In this document: piece by piece, positions 2,722 through 43,933 of the stretch
How positions within the stretch are numbered: position 1 is the stretch's first letter
How the letters are laid out: every line of letters starts with the position of its first letter
From: Patescibacteria group bacterium
Lineage (GTDB): Bacteria > Patescibacteriota > Minisyncoccia > Phycocordibacterales > Phycocordibacteraceae
Assembly (NCBI GenBank): GCA_019752595.1
Contig: JAIELV010000001.1
Span: forward strand, 378,551-442,550
Direction of reading: 5' to 3'
Length of the DNA stretch: 64,000 nt
Position numbers and translations under genes: made by a program
Notes under the pieces: model-generated
What the model saw: only the letters and a program-made list of their open reading frames with translations
Databases searched by the model: none
Told to the model about the DNA's origin: nothing

Positions 2722-3813
2722 ATGGCTAAAGCTAAAAAAGAAGTTGTTGTGTTGCCCGAAAACGAGGCAATGGAGAAACTCTTGCAAGAGAGTGCCATTC
2801 CCCCTGTCGGAGGCGACACCATTGAAGGACCAGTGGTCTACATCGGTTCAGGTAAGGTGTACATTGATCTCGCACCGTTCGGTACGGGAATTATTTACGG
2901 GCGCGAATACCTTTCGGCTCGCGACGTTCTCCGCAAAGTCGCTTTGGGCGATACCGTTTCCGCGAAAGTAATTGGTTCGTACAGCAAGGAAGGCTACATC
3001 GAGCTTTCACTCAAAGAGGCACGTCAGGCGATGATTTGGTCTGATGCTGAGCGCGCAATCGCTGGTGGCACCGTATTCGAACTCCCTGTCAAAGACGCAA
3101 ACAAAGGTGGGCTCATTATTCAGTGGCAAGGTATTCAGGGCTTTTTGCCCGCTTCTCAGTTGAAGCCTGAACACTACCCACGTGTGAAGGAAGGTGACAA
3201 ACAGCTTATTCTCGACGAGCTCAAGAAATTCATTGGACAAAATCTTTCAGTTTCAATCATTACCGCAGATCCGCGCGAAGGAAAACTCATCTTCTCTGAA
3301 CGTGGTGGCGCGAAGGAAAATAAAGGTGCACTCGCTGACCGCTATGCTGTGGGCGATGTTGTAGAAGGAATGGTAACGGGCATCGTCGACTTCGGTATCT
3401 TCGTGAAAATCGAAGAAGGTCTTGAAGGGTTGGTACACATTTCAGAAATCGACTGGGGATTGGTGGAAGACCCTCGCCTATTCGCAAAAGTAAATGAACC
3501 CATCAAGGTCCGTGTCATCGACATCAAAGACGGAAAGATTTCTCTTTCTCTCAAACAAATGTCGGAAGACCCATGGGTTTCTGCAGCAAAGAAATACAGC
3601 AAGGACGACACAGTTGAAGCTGCGGTCATCAAGTACAACAAGTACGGTGCCCTGGCATCAATTGAAGAAGGCGTTGCGGGATTGGTACACGTTTCAGAAT
3701 TTGAATCTGAAGCAAAACTCCGCGAGGCGCTGTCACTCGGCAAGACCTACAAGTTCAAAATTTCTTTGTTTGAACCAAAGGATCACCGCATGACCCTCTC
3801 GTTGAACAAATAA
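2722..3813 (+). CDS. rpsA: 30S ribosomal protein S1 (short, multi-S1-domain form)
   Basis: Repeated S1 domains (GxVxGxVxxIxDFGxFV...). ATG at 2722 (MAKAKKEVV) is preferred over the TTG at 2680. Confidence 0.88.
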   Translation: MAKAKKEVVVLPENEAMEKLLQESAIPPVGGDTIEGPVVYIGSGKVYIDLAPFGTGIIYGREYLSARDVLRKVALGDTVSAKVIGSYSKEGYIELSLKEARQAMIWSDAERAIAGGTVFELPVKDANKGGLIIQWQGIQGFLPASQLKPEHYPRVKEGDKQLILDELKKFIGQNLSVSIITADPREGKLIFSERGGAKENKGALADRYAVGDVVEGMVTGIVDFGIFVKIEEGLEGLVHISEIDWGLVEDPRLFAKVNEPIKVRVIDIKDGKISLSLKQMSEDPWVSAAKKYSKDDTVEAAVIKYNKYGALASIEEGVAGLVHVSEFESEAKLREALSLGKTYKFKISLFEPKDHRMTLSLNK

Positions 3814-3825
3814 GATCTTTACAAC

Positions 3826-3857
3826 AAAAAATCCCCGCACTCGCGGGGATTTTTTGT
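3826..3857. terminator. bidirectional rho-independent terminator
   Basis: CCCCGCACTCGCGGGG stem flanked by an A-run and a T-run, between convergent rpsA and pth. Confidence 0.6.
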
Positions 3858-4456
3858 TAATTAAATCGGTTCATCGCCACTGTGTGGCCCTCGACAGCAA
3901 TTGTCTCCACCGCTTCTATCACTTTCTTCATTACCTTTTTATATTCGGTTAAATTATCGGGTGAAAATTTGCCCAAGAGAAATTTCAACACTTTCTCCTC
4001 CCCTGTTGGCTTCTTTGCAATACCTTTTGGAGTCTTTGGAGAAACACCAACCCTGATGCGTATGAAATTTTTCGTCTTCACCGCTTTTATAACTGACTCG
4101 ACGCCGTTATGCCCCCCAGAACTCTTACCGCGCGAAATTTTGAACGTCCCCAACGGCATATCAAGCTCGTCGTGAATAACAATGAGGTTATCGACGTCCT
4201 TTTTTGACTTCACAAAGCGTAAAACCGCGACCCCAGATTTGTTCATAAAGGTATCTGGTATGAGCAAGGTTACTTTTTTGCTACTCAAAGTACCTGTTGA
4301 TGATTGAAATGGCGGTTTCTTCTCAATTTTCCATTCTGAAAAGTCATGCGTAGCGTGAATTCTCTCTACAACCATGCGTCCCGCATTGTGTCGCGTGTTT
4401 TCGTACTCACTTCCTGGGTTTCCTAGTCCAACTATCACAAACATAGGAATAAGCAT
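3857..4456 (-). CDS. pth: peptidyl-tRNA hydrolase
   Basis: GLGNPG and HNG motifs, about 199 aa. Confidence 0.9.
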   Translation of the reverse strand: MLIPMFVIVGLGNPGSEYENTRHNAGRMVVERIHATHDFSEWKIEKKPPFQSSTGTLSSKKVTLLIPDTFMNKSGVAVLRFVKSKKDVDNLIVIHDELDMPLGTFKISRGKSSGGHNGVESVIKAVKTKNFIRIRVGVSPKTPKGIAKKPTGEEKVLKFLLGKFSPDNLTEYKKVMKKVIEAVETIAVEGHTVAMNRFN

Positions 4457-4629
4457 ACACCGTATTAATCAGATTCTTAAACACCTAAGCGGAGAGAAGC
4501 GTTTTTGCAACACTAAGACTCGGGCAAACGCCCCGGAGTGGTGTTGCAAAAACGCTTCGCGGAGCGAGAAAGCATTGCGACACGTTTTGACCCTTGTGTG
4601 CAAATGAACTCAAGCGTACAATTTCACAC

Positions 4630-5193
4630 ATGACTCCCGATAAGAGTGCAATCTTGGACGACGTCATAAAATTTGCACTCATCGCACTCCTTATTGTCGT
4701 ACCGCTTCGATGGTTCGTCGCACAGCCGTTCATTGTGCGTGGCGCATCCATGGAGCCAGTATTCGAAAACGGCGAATATCTGATTGTTGACCAGCTCACC
4801 TACCGTTTCGAAGAGCCTGAACGTGGAGATGTCATTATCATGCGCTATCCGAAAGACCCTGACGTCTTCTTTATTAAGCGAATCGTAGGGCTACCAAGCG
4901 AAACGGTCGAACTCCAAGGGAAACAAGTCATCATCCGTCGCGGAGTAAATGAAGAATCAATCACGCTCGACCAATCATTCATCGAGCCAGAGCGGATGCG
5001 CGACGAATACGGAACCTATGCCTTAGGCGATGATGAATACTTTGTGATGGGCGACAACAGAAATGAAAGTTCCGATTCGCGCTCATGGGGTTCACTGCCA
5101 CGCGACAACATTATCGGCCGTCCGTTTATCCGCCTTTTCCCGCCAACACGAATTGATCTTTTCCCCGGTCACATTACAACTCAACCACAATAA
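4630..5193 (+). CDS. lepB: signal peptidase I
   Basis: N-terminal TM helix, catalytic SMEP (Ser) box, GDNRxxSxDSR box. An alternative start is at 4594. Confidence 0.85.
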   Translation: MTPDKSAILDDVIKFALIALLIVVPLRWFVAQPFIVRGASMEPVFENGEYLIVDQLTYRFEEPERGDVIIMRYPKDPDVFFIKRIVGLPSETVELQGKQVIIRRGVNEESITLDQSFIEPERMRDEYGTYALGDDEYFVMGDNRNESSDSRSWGSLPRDNIIGRPFIRLFPPTRIDLFPGHITTQPQ

Positions 5194-15339: not shown

Positions 15340-16122
15340 TTAAGATTTCACGGGCGACACCTTATTTAAAAGTGCCATAATCTCGCCATGAAGAACAGTG
15401 CTTGAACATAACTGCCCTTCCTGATCGCGGTCAAAGCGTTCAGGCACGTTTCCGAAAAGATCGGTCGCCTTTCCTCCCGCCTCTTCAACCAGCAATTTCG
15501 ACGGGGTCATGTCATACACGGAGCGACCACCAAAGAGAGACGCAGAAAATTCCCCCGCCGCAACCAAGGCACTCATGTAATGAATAGAAAGACCGACAAT
15601 TGAAGTTCCGCCGTGCGCTTTTATTGCTTCCAAAAGCGGGTGCAAATTCCTAACCTCTTTCAGTTTCCCCATACCAACCACCGTCCGCTGAAGGGTCGCG
15701 GATTCCGTTACGTGTATCTTCTTTCCGTTCATGAAGGCCCCCTTGCCTTTTTCTGCCGTAAACATACGGTCAAGAAACGGATCGTATACAACACTAAGTA
15801 TAGGTGTACCTGATTGTGTCAATGCAAGCGCAAACGTTGCAGTGGGAATACCGTGTGAGAAATTGTGTGTGCCGTCGACAGGATCGCAAATCCATACATA
15901 TTCGCTTTTTTCAGAGAAATCATCGCCTTCTTCGGAAAGAACGCTGTGCTCAGGGTAGGCATCCTTGAGTGCCTTGAGTACCAAATCATTAATAGCGAGG
16001 TCGGTTGCGGTAACAGGCGTGTTGTTATCTTTCCACTCCTGGTTGCAGTTCAGAGTGAAATTCTTCTTTATTATCTCGCCAGCCTGTTTTGCTAAATCTT
16101 TCGCTACATCACTATGCGCCAT
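15340..16122 (-). CDS. inositol monophosphatase / FBPase-family phosphatase
   Basis: DPVDGT and EEG motifs of the IMPase superfamily. Confidence 0.8.
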   Translation of the reverse strand: MAHSDVAKDLAKQAGEIIKKNFTLNCNQEWKDNNTPVTATDLAINDLVLKALKDAYPEHSVLSEEGDDFSEKSEYVWICDPVDGTHNFSHGIPTATFALALTQSGTPILSVVYDPFLDRMFTAEKGKGAFMNGKKIHVTESATLQRTVVGMGKLKEVRNLHPLLEAIKAHGGTSIVGLSIHYMSALVAAGEFSASLFGGRSVYDMTPSKLLVEEAGGKATDLFGNVPERFDRDQEGQLCSSTVLHGEIMALLNKVSPVKS

Positions 16123-24592: not shown

Positions 24593-25168
24593 GTGGATCT
24601 CGAAAAACAAAAACTCCTGGTTCCACGCGTCCCACGAAGAGCAGTACTTGCAGGTCTGTTATTGCCGCTTGTGAAAACGGTTCCTGCGACGCGTGAAGAA
24701 CGACAACGACTTGCTGAGCAAAATATTTCACACCTTCCTGAAATAGTGCTTGCCGATTTGCGCGCGCGAACTTCGGGGGTCGGAGAAACCCATTTCGGCG
24801 ACGAGCTTGCTGCAGGCAGATTCCTGGCGAGTGAAAACGAGCTCGGGAGAGAAGTGAGCGCTGCCATACTTGAGCTCCAGGGCGAGGGCGACCAAAAGAT
24901 AGCCCCTGATCTTGCAGAAGCACAGGTGTATTGGCTACTCAGAAATTCTGGGCATGGTCAAAGGCTGTCGCGTACAGAACGTGAAGCTATTGTTGCTCTT
25001 TCAAATTGGTGGCCTGAGATCTTTGAGCCGTATTACGACGACGGAGATGGTTCGCGCCGCACGCTTGTTGAAGAAATGCGAAACTACCCCTCGCTTCAAA
25101 GAGCTTTTGAAAGAAGCGGGCGTCAAGACATAGAAGTTGCCGACGCGAAATCCCGCTCATCCGACTAA
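24593..25168 (+). CDS. hypothetical protein (GTG start)
   Basis: 191-aa ORF with no motif. Confidence 0.45.
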   Translation: MDLEKQKLLVPRVPRRAVLAGLLLPLVKTVPATREERQRLAEQNISHLPEIVLADLRARTSGVGETHFGDELAAGRFLASENELGREVSAAILELQGEGDQKIAPDLAEAQVYWLLRNSGHGQRLSRTEREAIVALSNWWPEIFEPYYDDGDGSRRTLVEEMRNYPSLQRAFERSGRQDIEVADAKSRSSD

Positions 25169-25193
25169 AGTGCTATACTAAGTATAGCACTTT
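25167..25193. repeat. 27-bp perfect palindrome AAAGTGCTATACT-A-AGTATAGCACTTT, a family member of 2573-2601
   Basis: Sits between the convergent 3' ends of the 24593 ORF and orn. Confidence 0.8.
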
Positions 25194-25203
25194 GCGTGGG
25201 CAC

Positions 25204-25767: not shown

Positions 25768-25833
25768 ATCAGGAAACAGTGTAGCGTACCTCGCCGTTTT
25801 TTACACAACAACTACCAATACCATATCACACCT

Positions 25834-25867
25834 ATGTCACTATGTTACCATGGTAACATAGTGACAT
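25834..25867. promoter_or_regulatory. 34-bp perfect palindrome ATGTCACTATGTTACCATGGTAACATAGTGACAT upstream of orn
   Basis: Seen in sequence in the orn 5' region. Confidence 0.6.
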
Positions 25868-25923
25868 ATATACACGCCACACATTCCGCATGTAAATACT
25901 AGACAATTTAAATACTGTGTAAT

Positions 25924-35637: not shown

Positions 35638-35668
35638 CAAAAAAACCGCCCAACTGGGCGGTTTTTTA
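35638..35668 (-). terminator. rho-independent terminator
   Basis: ACCGCCCAACTGGGCGGT plus a T-run on the minus strand. Confidence 0.6.
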
Positions 35669-36639: not shown

Positions 36640-39600
36640 TTAGTTATCAGTCCAAGGTACAAGTGTCGGTAATTCGAGGCTCAAAGCAGGACACTCAATA
36701 AGATTCATCTGGCGCAGAGTGGTGATGTACACCAAGCCTGTTGCCGACGTCAAATTCCACGGCTTCAAGATTGAATCAGGGTTTGATGCCTGGAATGCCT
36801 TCACTGCCTCTTCGGTCATCGGACCAAAGAAACCTGTAATCGGAAGGTTTGCACCAACCCATTTGTTGAGGAATGCCTGAAGTTTCTTCACTTGTTCAAG
36901 GTCGTTCTTTGACCAAGCGCGCTTCAAGAATTTATCCATGTACAAACCGCAGGTTTCTCCAAGCACTCCCCCTGCACCGTCGGTGTTGCTGGGGCCGATT
37001 GAAGCACCGAGAACGAACGGACCGTTACTGCCGTTCGAGAACAACTGAGGGTCTGCGCCACCTGAACCGCCGCCTCCGCCACCGCCGTTACCTGGATTAT
37101 TTACTTCAGTTAACGATGTTGGTGAATACGAATTCGGATTGTTTGGGTCATTGTCCAAGTGACAGCCTGGGTCGCCAGCGTCTGAAAGACCGTCGCCGTC
37201 GTTATCCAAACCGTCTGAACAATCGAAGTCAGGATTCCAGACGTTTGTGAAGGTACAAGTGACTACATCACCTGCATCAACAAGTATCTGATGACCATTT
37301 GTGATTGATTCGCCTGCTGATTGACCGTCATAGAGGCAGGACACGGAACCGAAATCCCAGTTTGACGGAATTCCCGTTTCAACAATCGTGTGCGTTCCTT
37401 CCGTGTTCAGAGTGAGTGTGTTCATTCCGTCTTCGGAATCAAAGTTTTGGGCTTCGCCTCCGTTAAGAGAGAAGCTGAACTGATTGAAGAAGGTCGGAGG
37501 AATTTCCCCATCGTACGAAAGTACTTTCTTCACAATCAAGACAGGCTTGAAAGGTGCGCAATCAGGGTCCGCAAGGTCTATAAGGTTGTCACCGTCGTTG
37601 TCTGATTCATCAGTACACATAGCGAGCGTAGTTTCATTTCCTTCGCTCTGTCCGTTTGGATCATATACCGTACCGCCGTCACCGTTATCGACGAAACAAC
37701 CTGGATCATTTTGGTCAATCAAACCATCTGACGGGACATCGTTTTCAATACCGTCTGCACACGCTGGCTTATCATTGTTTGTGATTGTACAGGTTGCAGT
37801 TTGTCCGAGAAGCAAACTTCCTGAGCATGACTCAGAGTGCGTAACGGTGTAACCAGCGTTCGTGCTCGAATCTTCAAGTACAGAGTAACTTCCAGGAAGG
37901 ATTGAGAGGAGCACTTCTCCAACCGTGTCGAAGAAGTATGAAGAGCCTGTATTGTTCAACTTGAATGAGAACGTCGAGGTTGCATTCGTCTTGCCGTTGT
38001 CATTCACGAGTACTTTCTTCACCAAGACCGTCGTTGCTTGATCGTTATTCGCGAAGTAACACTGCTTCGTCTCGCCGATTGCAATAGAACCGCTGCATGC
38101 ACCTGTCATCGTTGCTGTGTATCCCTGTACAGGATCTTCAGTAACAGTGAATGTGCCAGGGAGAACAAAAATCGTGTTTTGCCCTGTACCTGAACTGATT
38201 GGCGTAAACGCGGTGTCGAGGAACGAAGTCGTTCCGCTGTTTGTCGTGTATGAGAGGTCGAATGTAAAGTCTGCAGGACCTTTCGTGCCACCAAGGTTGT
38301 CATTAATTACCGTTTTGTGAACAATTACTTTCGGAATGTATCCACTGCAACCAGAATCATTCAGGTCAACAAATGTATCTCCATCGTTATCCTGTCCGTC
38401 AGAGCAGGTAGCGAGCGTTGATTCGTTTCCTTCTGAAGTTGCATTGGCGTTGTATGAATCAGGATTATTTGCCTGAAGGTCAGTGTGACAACCAGGGTCT
38501 GCTGAATCCGTCAAACCGTCGCCATCATCGTCTGTACCGTTTGAGCATGCAGGGAGCGGAATATCGTTGTTCGTAATTGTACAGATAACATTCTGACCCA
38601 GGCCGACAGTAACGGTGTCAGCGTCTACCTGCGTTCCGCCTGTACATACCCATGCGGATGCCGCATATCCTGCAGGTCCTGATTCAGAAAGATTGTAATC
38701 ACCTGCGTCGAATGAAACAACGCCTGAGCTGTTGACTGAAGGACCTACACCTGAAAATCCTGTTGCACCAGTTGCTGTAAGAGTAAACGCTGAAGCGGGA
38801 GTGGTGCCGTTGTTGTCGTTGTCATCAATCACTACCTTATTAAGCGTGAGTGAAGAAGTGTTGTCATCGTTTACAATCGTACAATTTTTGTTTTCACCGA
38901 TAGCAAGCGTGATTGTGCCGTTTGAAGCACAGTCACCGCCGATGGTACCTGTGTATCCCGCTGCCGCTTCTTCGCTCACCGTGTACGTGCCTGCGTTCAA
39001 TGTGTTCGCAACACCCGATGTAACAATTGAGCTTGCAATCTTCAAGATAAAGTCAGCGATAACCTTCACGCCGCCGTTGTCGTTCGTTACAGTCTTTGTG
39101 ACGCTAAGGGTCGGTGCAATATCATTGTTTACAATCGTACAGGTCTTGTTCTGACCTGCAGACAAAGTGACGGTGCCGTTTGCTGCACAATCGCCACCAA
39201 ACGTTGCCGCGTATCCTGCTACATTCGTTTCGGAAACTGTGTGCGCACCGATAGAAACTGTAGCGGGAGTTCCTGATGTCGTAGGATTGCCGTCGATAAA
39301 GAGTGGGAAATCGCCAACACCAAGCGTTCCGCCGTTGTCGTTCGTAACCGTCTTCACCACAGTCAATTTCGGAGCAGGAAGCGCGTTGAATGCGACGCAG
39401 TGATAAGTTGTCGCAAATGCTGGAGAAGAAATGCTGTCGTAGTTGTCGTAGTTTTCTACGTCAGAGGAGCAGTAAATTTCTGCTGATACGTTTCCACCAG
39501 AAACTCCCGTGAACGGAACATAGTTAGCCTGCATCTGCTCGCGAACCCAAACGGATGAACCTGCTGGTACTTGTGCAGTTGCTACACCACTTCCATTTGT

Positions 39601-40689
39601 TGCAGGGAACGGCGTCCATGAGCCACCAGCTGCACCGACGTTGTCTCCTGGGTTTGCTGCTGCACTTGGTGCCCATTCAAAATTCCATCCTGATTGAAGG
39701 CGGCAGTTCGGATGTGTGCTGAGGAATGTAGAAGCGGTTGACGCGGTAATGTTTGCTCCACCGCTCATGTTCGGAAGGTCTGCTTCTGAATCACAGACAA
39801 TCTTCGTTGCTGAAATAGTTGCTGGAACTGGGTCATCGTTGTTCGTAATCGTACAGGTTGAAGTACCACCTGCAGTCACAGTCAAAACACAGCTGTTAGA
39901 TGTGTTTGGAGAATAGCTGACCGCGTACCCAACAGGAGTAACTTCAGTAATCGTGTACGTACCAGGAGCTACTGAAAGTGAGTTTGAACCGTCTGCCTCA
40001 AACTGAATCGGGGAACCGTTGTTTACCTTGAATGAGAAGTTAGAAGCCGTTGCTGTTCCTCCGCTGTTGTTGGTAACAGTCTTATTTACGACAATCGTTC
40101 CTGGCATTGCGTCTCCCGTAAGGAGAACGTCATCAAGTCGGAATTTATCACTTGAAGAGAGGCTGGAGCCGTAAAATCTGATTCTGAAGTTCGCATTGTT
40201 ATTTGCACCTGAAGGAAGCGAGTGGGAAGCCTGAAGCCAGTTTGATTGTGTGGGTGAATCATCGTAGTTAACGATAGTGGTCCACGTACTCCCCCCGTTT
40301 GACGACCACTGAACCTCAAGTTCGTCGTCGGCAGAAAGACCGCCAGGAATTTTATACCAATACGAGAGCACAATATTTTGAGAACCGACAGTCGATATAT
40401 TTTTCCTCAACTCGTCACCATTCGCATCCTTTACTTCGGCTGCGCTAGAACCGCCGTGTGTATCGTTGATGATGTCCCAATCGTTATCAGCAGCCGACCA
40501 CTGAGAAAAATTTCCTGTTTCAAATCCATCTGAAAAAAGCGTCGCTGCCTGCGCATTCTGCGGAAACGCGAGAAGCGCACCTGCCGATGTAATAAGGAGA
40601 GCCAAAATCGTAAGAGAGCTTACGAGGTTTTTTGCCCAGCCCGAAATCCCATAAAACTTAGTAATGTTGATCATAAAATAAATACTCAA
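36640..40689 (-). CDS. giant cell-surface repeat protein (1349 aa) with a C-terminal peptidoglycan-binding-like domain
   Basis: Signal peptide. More than 8 repeated units of about 100 aa (KTVTNDNGGT...TCTITNNDI), Asp-rich DGxDNDGDGxxD calcium-binding-like inserts, and a C-terminal KKLQAFLNKW...GFFGPMTEEAVKAFQ PG_binding_1-like motif. Confidence 0.75.
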   Translation of the reverse strand: MSIYFMINITKFYGISGWAKNLVSSLTILALLITSAGALLAFPQNAQAATLFSDGFETGNFSQWSAADNDWDIINDTHGGSSAAEVKDANGDELRKNISTVGSQNIVLSYWYKIPGGLSADDELEVQWSSNGGSTWTTIVNYDDSPTQSNWLQASHSLPSGANNNANFRIRFYGSSLSSSDKFRLDDVLLTGDAMPGTIVVNKTVTNNSGGTATASNFSFKVNNGSPIQFEADGSNSLSVAPGTYTITEVTPVGYAVSYSPNTSNSCVLTVTAGGTSTCTITNNDDPVPATISATKIVCDSEADLPNMSGGANITASTASTFLSTHPNCRLQSGWNFEWAPSAAANPGDNVGAAGGSWTPFPATNGSGVATAQVPAGSSVWVREQMQANYVPFTGVSGGNVSAEIYCSSDVENYDNYDSISSPAFATTYHCVAFNALPAPKLTVVKTVTNDNGGTLGVGDFPLFIDGNPTTSGTPATVSIGAHTVSETNVAGYAATFGGDCAANGTVTLSAGQNKTCTIVNNDIAPTLSVTKTVTNDNGGVKVIADFILKIASSIVTSGVANTLNAGTYTVSEEAAAGYTGTIGGDCASNGTITLAIGENKNCTIVNDDNTSSLTLNKVVIDDNDNNGTTPASAFTLTATGATGFSGVGPSVNSSGVVSFDAGDYNLSESGPAGYAASAWVCTGGTQVDADTVTVGLGQNVICTITNNDIPLPACSNGTDDDGDGLTDSADPGCHTDLQANNPDSYNANATSEGNESTLATCSDGQDNDGDTFVDLNDSGCSGYIPKVIVHKTVINDNLGGTKGPADFTFDLSYTTNSGTTSFLDTAFTPISSGTGQNTIFVLPGTFTVTEDPVQGYTATMTGACSGSIAIGETKQCYFANNDQATTVLVKKVLVNDNGKTNATSTFSFKLNNTGSSYFFDTVGEVLLSILPGSYSVLEDSSTNAGYTVTHSESCSGSLLLGQTATCTITNNDKPACADGIENDVPSDGLIDQNDPGCFVDNGDGGTVYDPNGQSEGNETTLAMCTDESDNDGDNLIDLADPDCAPFKPVLIVKKVLSYDGEIPPTFFNQFSFSLNGGEAQNFDSEDGMNTLTLNTEGTHTIVETGIPSNWDFGSVSCLYDGQSAGESITNGHQILVDAGDVVTCTFTNVWNPDFDCSDGLDNDGDGLSDAGDPGCHLDNDPNNPNSYSPTSLTEVNNPGNGGGGGGGSGGADPQLFSNGSNGPFVLGASIGPSNTDGAGGVLGETCGLYMDKFLKRAWSKNDLEQVKKLQAFLNKWVGANLPITGFFGPMTEEAVKAFQASNPDSILKPWNLTSATGLVYITTLRQMNLIECPALSLELPTLVPWTDN

Positions 40690-40893: not shown

Positions 40894-40941
40894 TTGTCCT
40901 TTAAAAAGGACACTACATTTGACTGTCCTTTATAAAGGACA
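40894..40941. promoter_or_regulatory. two 18-bp palindromes, TGTCCTTTAAAAAGGACA and TGTCCTTTATAAAGGACA, 30 bp apart
   Basis: In the divergent intergenic region between the giant surface-protein gene and valS. Confidence 0.55.
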
Positions 40942-41035: not shown

Positions 41036-43285
41036 ATGCACGACAAGTTTCTTAAGCCCTACGATTTCAAAGGAACTGAAACTGAAATCTATAAACGATG
41101 GGAAGAAGCGGGCTACTTCAATCCCGACAAACTCCCCCTTCGGCTAAACGCTCAGGGCAAGCTGGAAGACCGCAAAGAGCCGTTCACGATTGTCCTCCCT
41201 CCTCCGAATGTAACAGGCACCCTTCACATGGGTCACGCGGCAATGCTCGCGGTTGAGGATATTTTGGTCCGTACCGCCCGCATGCAGGGCAAGCGGGCGC
41301 TCTGGATTCCAGGCACCGATTCCGCAGCTATCGCCACACAATCAAAGGTTGAGGGTGAGATATATAAGAAGGAGAAGAAAACTCGCTACGACATCGGCCG
41401 CGAAGAGCTTCTAAAACGAATTGACGCATTCACCAAGGAAAGCGAATCAACCATCATTAGTCAGGTAAAGCGCATGGGCTCATCTTTGGATTGGAGCAGA
41501 TACGCATACACGTTGGACTCCAAACGCTACAGCGCCGTGATGACAGCATTCGTTCGCATGTTTGATGCAGGGCTGATCTACCGTGGAGATAGAATTGTGA
41601 ATTGGGATCCGAAACTCCAAACAACTGTGTCTGACGACGAAATTGAATACGTCGAAGAATCAGTTCCCTTCTACTATTTCAAATACGGCCCGTTCACTAT
41701 CGGTACCGTACGCCCCGAAACAAAGTTCGGCGACAAATACGTCGTTATGCATCCAGACGATGCGCGATATAGGGAATGGAAGCACGGCCAGCAAATAGAG
41801 GTGGAGTGGATTAATGGACCGATAACCGCAACGGTGATTAAAGATGAAGCAGCAGACATGGAGGTGGGTTCGGGTGTCATGACCATCACTCCCGCACACT
41901 CCGTCATAGACTTTGAAATAGCCAAGCGCCACAACCTAGACATTGAGCGTGTTATCGACGACCGCGGAATACTTTTGGACATCGCAGGTGAATTCAAAGG
42001 TCAGCACATCAAGAAAGCTCGACCAATGATTGTGGAAAAACTTCAGGCAAAAGGTCTGATTGAGAAAGTTGACGAGAAATACGTTCACAACATTGCCACC
42101 AACAGCCGAGGCGGCGGAATTATCGAGCCACAGATAAAACTTCAGTGGTTTATTGCGGTTAATAAAGAATTCGTCATCCCCCATTCTGAAATCCCTGGAA
42201 TCGCTTCGGGCTCAACGACTACACTGAAGGCGCTCATGCGAGCTGCAGTTGAAAGTCACGCGACCACGATTCTGCCCGAGCGTTTCGAACGCGTGTACAT
42301 GCACTGGATTGATAACTTGCGCGACTGGTGTATCTCGCGCCAGATTTGGTTCGGACACCGTATTCCTGCTTGGTACCGTTCGACTGACGCTCACGGCAAG
42401 TCGAACGGTACCCCGAGCGAAAGTCGAGGGGTAGAAATAAAAGTGTCAGTTGATTCCCCTGGCGCAGGCTGGGAACAGGACCCCGACACTTTGGACACGT
42501 GGTTCTCTTCGGGTTTGTGGACATTCTCAACGTTGGGCTGGCCTGAAAAAACTGAAGACTTGAAACGCTTTCACCCGACGTCAGTTCTTGAAACGGGATA
42601 CGACATTATTTTCTTCTGGGTTGCCCGCATGGTGTTGATGAGTGCATTCCACTTAGGGCAAGTGCCATTCAAAACAGTGTACCTCCACGGCTTGGTGCGC
42701 GATGCGAAAGGAAAGAAAATGTCTAAATCCCTCGGGAACATCATCGACCCCGTCGATATGATTGAAAAATACGGCGCCGACGCCGCTCGCCTCTCCCTCA
42801 TCATAGGCGCGGCACCTGGAAACGATATCAAGCTTTCTGAAGACCGCGTGCGCGGATACAAAAACTTTGCCAACAAAATCTGGAATATTGCGCGTTTCGT
42901 TCTCGAAAGCACTGAGGGGCTTGATGTAACTACGAAGCCGACACTCAGTGTCGAAGACACAGCTGACATTGAAGAATTGAATAAAACAATCGCCGAAGTC
43001 ACCAAGCAAATGAACGATTACCGTTTGGATTTAGCCGCGGACGCTACGTACCACTACATCTGGCACACATTCGCTGACGTCGTGATTGAAAAGAGTAAAG
43101 CAGCTCTCAAAGGCGACGACCTCGCAGCAAAACAGAGAACCGCGTGGAAGTTGTACACAATTCTCACCACATCATTGAAACTCATCCATCCGTTCATGCC
43201 GTTTGTGACGGAAGAAATTTGGACACACCTTCCAAAGAAAGATTCAGACATGCTGATCGTGGCCCCCTGGCCCACCATCTCCTAA
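41036..43285 (+). CDS. valS: valyl-tRNA synthetase (short form, no C-terminal coiled coil)
   Basis: HMGHA (HIGH) and KMSKS motifs, with editing-domain insertion. Confidence 0.9.
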   Translation: MHDKFLKPYDFKGTETEIYKRWEEAGYFNPDKLPLRLNAQGKLEDRKEPFTIVLPPPNVTGTLHMGHAAMLAVEDILVRTARMQGKRALWIPGTDSAAIATQSKVEGEIYKKEKKTRYDIGREELLKRIDAFTKESESTIISQVKRMGSSLDWSRYAYTLDSKRYSAVMTAFVRMFDAGLIYRGDRIVNWDPKLQTTVSDDEIEYVEESVPFYYFKYGPFTIGTVRPETKFGDKYVVMHPDDARYREWKHGQQIEVEWINGPITATVIKDEAADMEVGSGVMTITPAHSVIDFEIAKRHNLDIERVIDDRGILLDIAGEFKGQHIKKARPMIVEKLQAKGLIEKVDEKYVHNIATNSRGGGIIEPQIKLQWFIAVNKEFVIPHSEIPGIASGSTTTLKALMRAAVESHATTILPERFERVYMHWIDNLRDWCISRQIWFGHRIPAWYRSTDAHGKSNGTPSESRGVEIKVSVDSPGAGWEQDPDTLDTWFSSGLWTFSTLGWPEKTEDLKRFHPTSVLETGYDIIFFWVARMVLMSAFHLGQVPFKTVYLHGLVRDAKGKKMSKSLGNIIDPVDMIEKYGADAARLSLIIGAAPGNDIKLSEDRVRGYKNFANKIWNIARFVLESTEGLDVTTKPTLSVEDTADIEELNKTIAEVTKQMNDYRLDLAADATYHYIWHTFADVVIEKSKAALKGDDLAAKQRTAWKLYTILTTSLKLIHPFMPFVTEEIWTHLPKKDSDMLIVAPWPTIS

Positions 43286-43340
43286 ACCCACGCTGCCACC
43301 CTTACCCGTTGGCGTCCCTGTCCTCTGTTGCCCACCTCCA

Positions 43341-43364
43341 AATCTTCCCATATATGGGAAGATT
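43341..43364. promoter_or_regulatory. 24-bp perfect palindrome AATCTTCCCATATATGGGAAGATT, copy 1
   Basis: Overlaps the first ATG of the TrpR-like gene. Identical to 43831-43854. Confidence 0.7.
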
Positions 43365-43821
43365 TTCTCGAGAAATGGAGTACACTTATAACAATATGAA
43401 AATCCGCCCTGGAAAACTGACGAGGCAACAAACCATAGAGACACTCGACGCGCTTTACACTGCAGCGAGTGCAATCAAGGGTAGGGATGCTGTAAAAATG
43501 TTTCTTCGTGATCTACTCACAAAAAGCGAGCGCGTTATGCTCGGTAGAAGAATACTTATCGCGCAAAAGCTTTTAGCAGGAGAAACTCAAACAGCCATTA
43601 AACAGTCTCTCGGGGTTGGAAACGACACAATTGCCAGAGTTGAACAGTGGCTTCAAGACCAAATTCCAGGATACGAACAAGCGCTGAAGAAAATGGAAGA
43701 AGTGTACGACGCGCGCGCGATGCGGAGAGCTCCGCTTGGTACGTTTGGATATTTAAAAAGAAAATACCCTCTCCACTTCCTATTCTTTCCTATTCCGAAA
43801 CGACCCACGAGTAGAAAATAG
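43354..43821 (+). CDS. TrpR-related YerC/YecD-family DNA-binding protein
   Basis: ERVMLGRRILIAQKLLAGETQTAIKQSLGVGNDTIARV is a Trp-repressor-like HTH. Start is uncertain (43354, 43375 or 43396). Confidence 0.65.
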   Translation: MGRFSREMEYTYNNMKIRPGKLTRQQTIETLDALYTAASAIKGRDAVKMFLRDLLTKSERVMLGRRILIAQKLLAGETQTAIKQSLGVGNDTIARVEQWLQDQIPGYEQALKKMEEVYDARAMRRAPLGTFGYLKRKYPLHFLFFPIPKRPTSRK

Positions 43822-43830
43822 TTTTCAACC

Positions 43831-43854
43831 AATCTTCCCATATATGGGAAGATT
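43831..43854. promoter_or_regulatory. 24-bp perfect palindrome AATCTTCCCATATATGGGAAGATT, copy 2
   Basis: Downstream of the TrpR-like gene and upstream of prsW. Confidence 0.7.
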
Positions 43855-43933
43855 GCACATTACGTTACTCACGAAATCACCCCAAGAATACTTAATGGAT
43901 TGGGTATGAAATTTTATACGTTAGAATAAAGCA

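Follow-up and report, generated by a model that had tools for sequence, protein, structure and literature searches.

What function is served by two identical palindromes that flank a single gene encoding a TrpR-family regulator in a Patescibacteria genome? The locus lies in a stretch of 64,000 nucleotides (positions 378,551 to 442,550 of contig JAIELV010000001.1, assembly GCA_019752595.1; hereafter the window, numbered from its first letter), where the regulator gene (43396 to 43821, + strand; 141 amino acids, MBY0539279.1) is situated between valS and prsW. Our analysis showed that this bracketed layout is conserved among relatives, that the palindromes possess an operator-like anatomy and that their arms are locus-specific. 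The best-supported reading, and one that sequence comparison renders reasonably probable, takes the palindromes for operators of the very protein encoded between them, in a module that would be negatively autoregulated.

The 24-mer AATCTTCCCATATATGGGAAGATT occurred exactly twice in the window, at 43341-43364 and 43831-43854, with a spacing of 490 bp. Exact and mismatch searches of the window confirmed in this respect a preliminary description of the same DNA, which had reported an identical palindrome pair 490 bp apart around the gene. The pair had also been described as a perfect 24-bp palindrome; the 24-mer is indeed identical in both copies, but each copy was in fact perfect over 26 bp, with an outermost pair that differed between them (A..T versus C..G). 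The upstream palindrome, candidate operator 1 (AAATCTTCCCATATATGGGAAGATTT, 43340 to 43365), has its centre 43 nt ahead of the regulator start codon and 55 nt past the valS stop, and the centre of the downstream palindrome, candidate operator 2 (CAATCTTCCCATATATGGGAAGATTG, 43830 to 43855), lies 21 nt past the regulator stop codon; neither was assigned a strand. In sequence form the window palindrome is TCTTCCCATATATGGGAAGA, and its inner 20 bp read TCTTCCC-ATATAT-GGGAAGA. Allowing up to three mismatches, no further copies of AATCTTCCCATATATGGGAAGATT were found in the 64-kb window and no match was found in 100 shuffles, while searches of the window with the 16-mer core (up to three mismatches) or the 10-nt half-site (up to one mismatch) returned only the same two sites. 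Two CATATATG cores at 16120 and 63502 were rejected as chance occurrences, with palindromy ending at the core. An exact scan for CTTCCCATATATGGGAAG in the GTDB species genomes (596 Gb, a collection outside which the source genome falls) gave nine single matches in unrelated taxa, approximately the chance expectation for an 18-mer palindrome, and the sole Saccharibacteria match (L006) had no TrpR-like gene nearby.

The protein encoded between the palindromes matched Pfam family PF01371 (Trp_repressor) with 59 bits compared to a gathering score of 27, across profile positions 2-87 of 88. Its start, MK(I/V)R, corresponds to ATG 43396 in the NCBI protein and in 27 aligned homologues, and for this reason ATG 43354, located inside palindrome 1, is not the start codon. 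The earlier claim that palindrome 1 overlaps the first ATG of the gene was consequently abandoned, as 43354 is merely the first in-frame ATG. An AlphaFold2 model of the monomer (mean predicted local distance difference test score 76) had an all-helical TrpR fold with a helix-turn-helix (HTH), and its best structural matches in the PDB by Foldseek were Staphylococcus aureus YerC (3KOR), a Ruminococcus obeum TrpR-like protein (3FRW) and Escherichia coli TrpR. The top 41 PDB matches were all TrpR, YerC or TrpR-like chains (probability 0.99-1.00, target TM-score 0.53-0.74), and a PDB sequence search agreed, with HisR/YerC-type structures as best matches (E 2e-6 to 4e-4). The NCBIfam models for the TrpR equivalog (TIGR01321; 32.8 bits) and for YerC/YecD (TIGR02531; 30.3 bits) both scored under their cut-offs of 67.25 and 42.2, respectively. 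Of the initial "TrpR/YerC-like" label, membership of the TrpR family is thus upheld by the Pfam score and the structure, and the YerC part is only approximate given both missed cut-offs. No trp biosynthesis genes adjoined the regulator in the window or in the inspected loci, and no his genes were present in the inspected neighbourhoods. Because the TrpR equivalog cut-off was missed and adjoining trp genes were absent, the NCBI name 'trp operon repressor' is unjustified and misleading.

The HTH region spans residues 63-86 (43582 to 43653, + strand), with model helices at 65-72 and 76-89 and a recognition helix from N76-D77. Alignment of 28 homologues revealed an invariant protein core (LYTAA, RDLLTxSERxMLGRR) and a C-terminal extension of ~40 amino acids that is conserved in the family, ends in KYPLHFLLFPxPK and is absent from TrpR and HisR. 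Within this extension the conserved tail YLKRKYPLHFLFFPIPK (residues 119-135; 43750 to 43800, + strand) was modelled as low-confidence short helices, and its residues K121, Y124, P125, L126, H127, F128, L129, F131 and P132 were invariant or nearly so in the 28 homologues. The tail motif K-Y-P-L-H-F-L-L-F-P looks like a short linear interaction motif. A profile search collected 543 representatives of 50% identity clusters at E <= 1e-10, and the named members of this family were Parcubacteria, Paceibacteria or Kaiserbacteria.

Is the bracket a peculiarity of one genome, or does it characterise the family? In each of the first five orthologous loci, CATATATG-core palindromes stood on either side of the regulator, with differing arms and unrelated gene neighbourhoods, and 80 further loci were then collected from metagenomes, giving a total set of 86 loci (566 kb). 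Perfect palindromes 16 bp or longer numbered 205 in this set. Of these, 170 had GATATATC or CATATATG as their core, almost all of which lay within ~100 nt of the regulator start or stop. A strict site was defined by an ATATAT centre and at least 9 of 10 pairs, and was scored in a non-redundant set of 73 loci (505 kb), where by our estimate ~0.2 strict sites would be expected by chance. An upstream strict site was present in 59 of 71 loci (83%); the proximal centre had a median position of -28 relative to the ATG (range -14 to -89). A downstream strict site was present in 51 of 67 loci (76%), with a median position of +20 relative to the stop codon, which some sites overlapped. Loci failing the strict test mostly had palindromes with variant centres, for example GATGCATC or TTACGTAA, and some loci had two or three sites on one side of the regulator. 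Related inverted repeats also bracketed the regulator in two members at greater distance (E 1e-22 and 5e-29). It appears from these comparisons that the bracketed layout is a conserved, family-wide module, whatever the neighbouring genes.

The neighbourhoods themselves were varied. In the distant member L098 (GCA_035547395.1), which has ATATATCGATATAT-type palindromes at 1449-1478 and 1941-1964, the regulator is followed on the same strand by the riboflavin genes ribE, ribH and ribBA. Aminoacyl-tRNA synthetase genes were often found directly upstream of the regulator, including trpS, aspS or asnS, valS and, in L005, cysS; such upstream genes were mapped to 67-2457 in L020, 474-1430 in L036 and 41036-43285 in the window. 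A 'trp repressor' gene has been reported to head a tRNA-Trp/TrpRS operon in some bacteria of the candidate phyla radiation (CPR) (PMC5370408).

If the palindromes are operators, which part of them is recognised? The half-site logo yACTwYS-ATA|TAT-SrwAGTr described a 20-bp dyad. At arm positions 4-10 the identity was 94% within a locus (upstream versus downstream copy) compared to 50% between loci, while it dropped to 40% within and 32% between loci at positions 11-13 and was at background at positions 14-16 (28% within and 26% between). Because the within-locus identity of the arms falls to background beyond it, the recognised element is likely to measure ~20 bp. The 24-bp identity between copies observed in the window was at the high end of the range and was reached by five of 51 loci. 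Paralogues encoded on the same contig had unlike arms (TACACCC/TTGTCCC; TTGTCCC/CACTATC; CACTATC/TTCACCC), and the HTH was the fastest-evolving part of the family. Binding to the 20-bp dyad as a candidate site is proposed on the basis of the HisR-register logo, the locus-specific arms and the covariation of the arms with the HTH.

With regard to binding, the direction of regulation, looping or a roadblock, the ligand and the C-terminal tail, we infer a scheme in which a homodimer of the TrpR-like protein would recognise the inner 20 bp of each palindrome. The upstream site would fall within the promoter and 5' leader region, and its occupancy would repress transcription of the regulator's own gene (negative autoregulation), probably, as for TrpR and HisR, in a manner dependent on a small-molecule co-repressor. 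The site after the stop codon may form a DNA loop with the upstream one, enclosing the ~490-bp gene and making the two sites cooperative, or it may be a roadblock by which the gene is insulated from adjacent genes.

Several observations weigh against this scheme or soften its support. The strongest mutual information between bases and residues linked half-site positions -6, -8 and -4 with N76, D77, K69 and Q65 (z 6-14), a signal that was confounded by phylogeny, as several non-HTH residues also scored high. Similarly, in protein pairs at least 72% identical the HTH evolved at 1.7x the rate of the rest of the protein when half-sites were equal and at 2.1x when they differed, a contrast (Fisher p ~0.018) drawn from non-independent pairs. 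A sigma-70 scan identified nothing at the regulator site in the window, and a position-by-position comparison of 60 loci gave no clear peak for a -35 element at any set spacing to the palindrome centre; occlusion as the means of repression is accordingly assumed. The window arms, TCTTCCC, were also atypical for the family and lacked the -10-like TATSAT of most relatives. In most relatives the right arm holds a -10-like TATSAT or SATAGT and the ATG is sometimes only 14-16 nt from the centre, which suggests leaderless regulator mRNAs in those relatives; as the arms of the window differ, this was not used further. The separations of 450-530 bp showed no helical phasing (Rayleigh p > 0.16 for periods of 10-11.3 bp), so that looping is without positive support.

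A further difficulty concerned the length of the palindromes. Beyond the common 20 bp, palindromy continued for a mean of 3.1 further perfect pairs (0.33 expected) and reached totals of up to 50 bp, with at least three extra perfect pairs in 44% of sites (1.6% expected). The outer arms were unconserved and differed between both copies of one locus. Extended palindromy is left unexplained by a plain operator model, as a dimer on 20 bp does not need it. It would fit selection for cruciform extrusion, which an ATATAT centre favours, or a template-switch mutational bias at a hairpin-prone operator; a bias of this kind would perfect quasi-palindromes and extend them.

These same features raise the question of whether the palindromes could act independently of the protein, as DNA cruciforms or as hairpins of RNA or single-stranded DNA, serving as terminators or insulators to either side of the gene or as stem-loops that stabilise mRNA ends. 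Perfect pairing to 44-50 bp with unconserved arms is what selection on a stem would give, the ATATAT centre is in keeping with cruciforms, and copies remote from the regulator often lay between convergent gene ends. Additionally, both window copies could be folded as hairpins with an 11-bp stem and a UAUA loop (-16 to -24 kcal/mol; z -3.3 to -4.6). The signatures of a structured RNA were, however, missing from the family sites. The first broken pair had no G·U bias (15/102 sense and 18/102 antisense, where one third is expected), pairing beyond the end of the perfect palindrome was at chance (1.52 of 6 pairs, 1.5 expected) and the self-complementary centre provided no asymmetric loop or spacer. 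A T tract (at least six T in a 9-nt 3' window) followed just 3-7% of family sites, although the same genome contains canonical GC-rich T-tract terminators, for example at 3823-3858 and 35640-35667; in the window the next bases were TTTCTC after copy 1 and GCACAT after copy 2. A consensus scan for intrinsic (Rho-independent) terminators flagged neither palindrome, with no GC-stem/loop/U-tract form, and the sole match in Rfam 15 was a long non-coding RNA at chance level (E 0.12, 19.5 bits compared to a gathering score of 55). The RNA hairpin or terminator was ruled out as a candidate by the G·U test, the abrupt ends, the few T tracts and the lack of an Rfam match. On account of the missing G·U bias, the abrupt ends, the symmetric centre and the scarce T tracts, the palindromes look like dyad-symmetric sites in duplex DNA and not like RNA hairpins or terminators. 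A generic stem also does not need locus-specific inner arms that are common to both copies and track the HTH, and would not be associated near-exclusively with one protein family. Taken as a whole, a protein-independent structural role is considered quite unlikely.

Does the downstream copy serve the next gene instead? The preliminary description had proposed autoregulation together with possible control of prsW by the downstream copy, and in this reading that copy would mainly be an operator placing prsW, and hsp20 with it, under the regulator. The arrangement in the window is suggestive, as prsW and hsp20 are next on the same strand, with the palindrome 80 nt before the prsW start, and the order valS-regulator-prsW recurred in L054 and L090, and only there. 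A roadblock or read-through model would, moreover, couple the regulator to any same-strand gene downstream. Against this, the downstream palindrome was kept whatever the next gene, which shared the regulator's strand in 26 loci and ran opposite to it in 26 others, so that half of the neighbours were convergent. The distance from the regulator stop to the palindrome was 20-23 nt in the window, L054 and L090 alike, while the prsW ATG lay 91 nt from the palindrome centre in the window and 69-70 nt from it in L054 and L090. Since the distance is fixed to the stop codon and variable to prsW, the downstream palindrome belongs to the regulator gene and not to the prsW promoter.

The prsW gene appears to have a promoter of its own, outside the module. 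A -10 element TAGAAT (43922 to 43927, + strand), ~65 nt past the palindrome and followed by 6 nt and ATG 43934, was conserved in the window, L090 (~2848-2862) and L054 (~850-864) as part of a block GAAA..ATACGTTAGAATAAAGCxATG, and the palindrome lies upstream of this block without overlapping it. The sequence between the palindrome and the block was unconserved in all three loci. No Shine-Dalgarno sequence was present in the TAGAAT-6 nt-ATG arrangement, and the prsW mRNA is probably leaderless. With a site maintained irrespective of the following gene and a conserved promoter for prsW itself, the proposed control of prsW was not borne out, and of the earlier proposal only the autoregulatory half, own sites for the regulator, was strengthened by the comparison of arms and brackets. 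A principal role of the downstream copy as a prsW operator is very unlikely in our judgement.

The same three loci raised a further question, namely whether the module and its surroundings share one history. Protein identity between the window and L090/L054 was 89% for ValRS and 85-89% for PrsW but only 60-63% for the regulator, and as the median identity of a random pair in the regulator family was 58%, the syntenic regulators were no closer than that. The arms at this position were also different, TCTTCCC in the window versus TTCTATC in L090 and L054 (L090-type site TTCTATCATATATGATAGAA). Nucleotide similarity of 76-82% in the flanks stopped at 43274 and resumed at 43916. In other syntenic pairs the regulator was as conserved as the flanks or more so, making the valS-prsW case an outlier. 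This can be interpreted either as the replacement of the module by another family member or as a very fast joint change of specificity in the protein and its sites. GC content showed no anomaly at the module and no hint of foreign origin.

Such a boundary would also be expected of a mobile or recombining cassette resembling a REPtron, in which the palindromes are ends or copy-paste units and the protein is a site-specific DNA-binding component. In addition to the divergent regulator and arms at the valS-prsW site, DNA homology between some loci with 84-95% identical proteins ran exactly from palindrome edge to palindrome edge, several paralogues were present per genome, and palindromes cognate to a regulator were found in in-frame insertions in uvrB. 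In that gene, a palindrome cognate to the TrpR-like paralogue on the same contig lay inside a 10-13-amino-acid in-frame insertion in one loop (after RPVTG) in two lineages (L031 5444-5475; L093 9852-9883; L046 9587-9606), and UvrB of the closer relatives L032, L048 and L058 had a short loop with neither insertion nor palindrome. Overall, ~15 strict sites were located more than 250 nt from a regulator in the ~400 kb of flanking sequence of relatives. Several fell in intergenic DNA, frequently at the ends of genes or in front of rarA or aspS. The sites within the mutY and trpS coding sequences showed no insertion or deletion relative to solved homologues and are thus taken to have arisen in place, which counts against insertion as a general origin. 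The copy number was low for a mobile element (two in 64 kb, and the ~15 remote sites of relatives), no catalytic domain of a transposase, recombinase or nuclease was found in the regulator or in nearby proteins, and the family was not found in viral contigs. Many closely related pairs kept their syntenic flanks, the GC content was unremarkable as noted above, and fast intergenic divergence can mimic cassette boundaries. Mobility of this kind is therefore regarded as decidedly unlikely.

The insertions in uvrB were not the sole connection to DNA repair. The genes uvrA, uvrB, uvrC and rarA were each found in 6-8 of 72 loci of ~6 kb, compared to an expectation of ~0.5, a count uncorrected for phylogeny that came from few independent lineages, and in those lineages uvrC was divergent from the regulator with a palindrome in the common spacer. 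In one clade (L026, L058 and L093 at ~3650-5000; L031, L032, L046 and L005) two TrpR-like paralogues were clustered with uvrC, uvrA, uvrB and rarA. These associations suggest that the regulator family is linked to DNA repair genes in one clade. No uvr or rarA gene was present near the module in the window.

A more far-reaching reading would unite several of these observations. The regulator and its two palindromes would form a self-contained, fast-diversifying cassette, in which the DNA-recognition helix and both sites change specificity together and whole modules are exchangeable at a fixed position. Paralogues in one genome would be kept from cross-reacting, and the palindromes would grow long and cruciform-prone and would occasionally be copied elsewhere, including in frame into uvrB. 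The family would then be a Patescibacteria-specific system connected with DNA damage or stress responses (uvrABC and rarA in one clade; prsW and hsp20 in the window) or with chromosome structure, and not an ordinary metabolite-sensing repressor. This reading is unlikely; operators of a negatively autoregulated module continue to be the interpretation that we prefer.

Other palindromic and repeated sequences were observed in the window. A 36-bp perfect palindrome, TATGTCACTATGTTACCATGGTAACATAGTGACATA, at 25833-25868 in an intergenic or short open reading frame region was unrelated in sequence to the palindromes of the regulator. Another dyad, AA(A/T)GTGCTATACT-N-AGTATAGCAC(A/T)TTGCGTG, occurred in two copies (2574-2608 and 25167-25200), and each of its halves holds a TGnTATACT extended -10-like element; it may serve another regulator or represent two promoters that face each other. 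An 18-20-bp palindrome, TGTCCTTTATAAAGGACA, was located ~100 nt upstream of valS (40923-40940), in the spacer after a TTGACT hexamer, and was found in the same place in L090 (18-37). An open reading frame of 1349 amino acids (36640-40689, - strand) with repetitive Thr/Asn-rich modules and Cys-containing D-rich repeats probably encodes a large surface protein, and a bidirectional terminator-like hairpin lies in the same region (40608-40625).

To our knowledge, Patescibacteria (CPR) possess very few transcription factors, and we know of no regulatory circuit in them that has been worked out experimentally. A full-text literature search returned no description of the layout or the motif, and the bracketed regulatory module is apparently undescribed so far. 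As the regulator family comprises hundreds of 50%-identity clusters, it provides, in almost all genomes in which it occurs, a protein and a DNA site whose pairing can be tested, and its natural specificity swaps could be used to read out the recognition code of TrpR-type proteins. The layout additionally raises questions on looping, roadblocks, cruciform formation and template-switch mutagenesis, and the single-clade association with uvrA, uvrB, uvrC and rarA points tentatively to a DNA repair regulator in Patescibacteria.

How does the module compare with known systems? E. coli TrpR is a homodimeric, intertwined, all-helical repressor that depends on a co-repressor and binds an 18-20-bp palindrome overlapping its own promoter. 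Its half-sites likewise contain ACT/AGT elements, although in the Patescibacteria sites the ACT lies 2 bp further from the dyad centre, and TrpR has one operator per target with no downstream partner site, in contrast to the regulator described here. Paired sites of one repressor that act by DNA looping are familiar from LacI (O1-O2/O3), GalR (OE-OI) and lambda CI (OL-OR). In these systems too, two identical or similar sites flank or sit inside the regulated unit, and the lambda loop encloses cI; the 450-530-bp spacing found here is, however, unphased, and a partner site regularly placed within ~20 nt of the stop codon, as in hundreds of lineages of this family, is not described there.

A single gene flanked by its cognate palindromes, with copies elsewhere and in-frame insertions as in uvrB, also recalls REPtrons, in which a gene for a REP-associated tyrosine transposase (RAYT) is flanked by repetitive extragenic palindromes (REPs), and the Rickettsia palindromic elements that insert in frame into genes. 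Unlike a RAYT, the regulator has only a Trp_repressor domain and no Y1 HUH domain, and two copies were present in 64 kb compared to the tens to hundreds of REP systems.

Another close system is HisR (YerC; PDB 3G1C, 3KOR, 3FRW), the histidine repressor of Firmicutes, which shares the fold and the Pfam family of the Patescibacteria regulator. The HisR/YerC operator of Firmicutes, cacTTTA-N6-TAAAgtg, is a 20-bp dyad, and autoregulation is common in the HisR family, with approximately half of hisR genes preceded by their own site (PMC9413887). Both operators share the 20-bp register and the CACT-type outer bases, and some Patescibacteria sites read CACTTTG-ATATAT-CAAAGTG. The proteins differ in length (~100 amino acids for HisR versus 141 here) and in the KYPLHFLLFP tail, which is found only in the Patescibacteria regulator, while the N6 centre of the HisR operator is replaced by ATATAT in the Patescibacteria family. 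Unlike HisR genes, those of the Patescibacteria family as a rule have a second site immediately behind the stop codon, and the arms are hypervariable between lineages and paralogues. In summary, the TrpR and HisR systems described to date lack the fixed downstream site, the ATATAT centre, the hypervariable arms that differ between paralogues, the perfect palindromes that keep extending, and the C-terminal tail.

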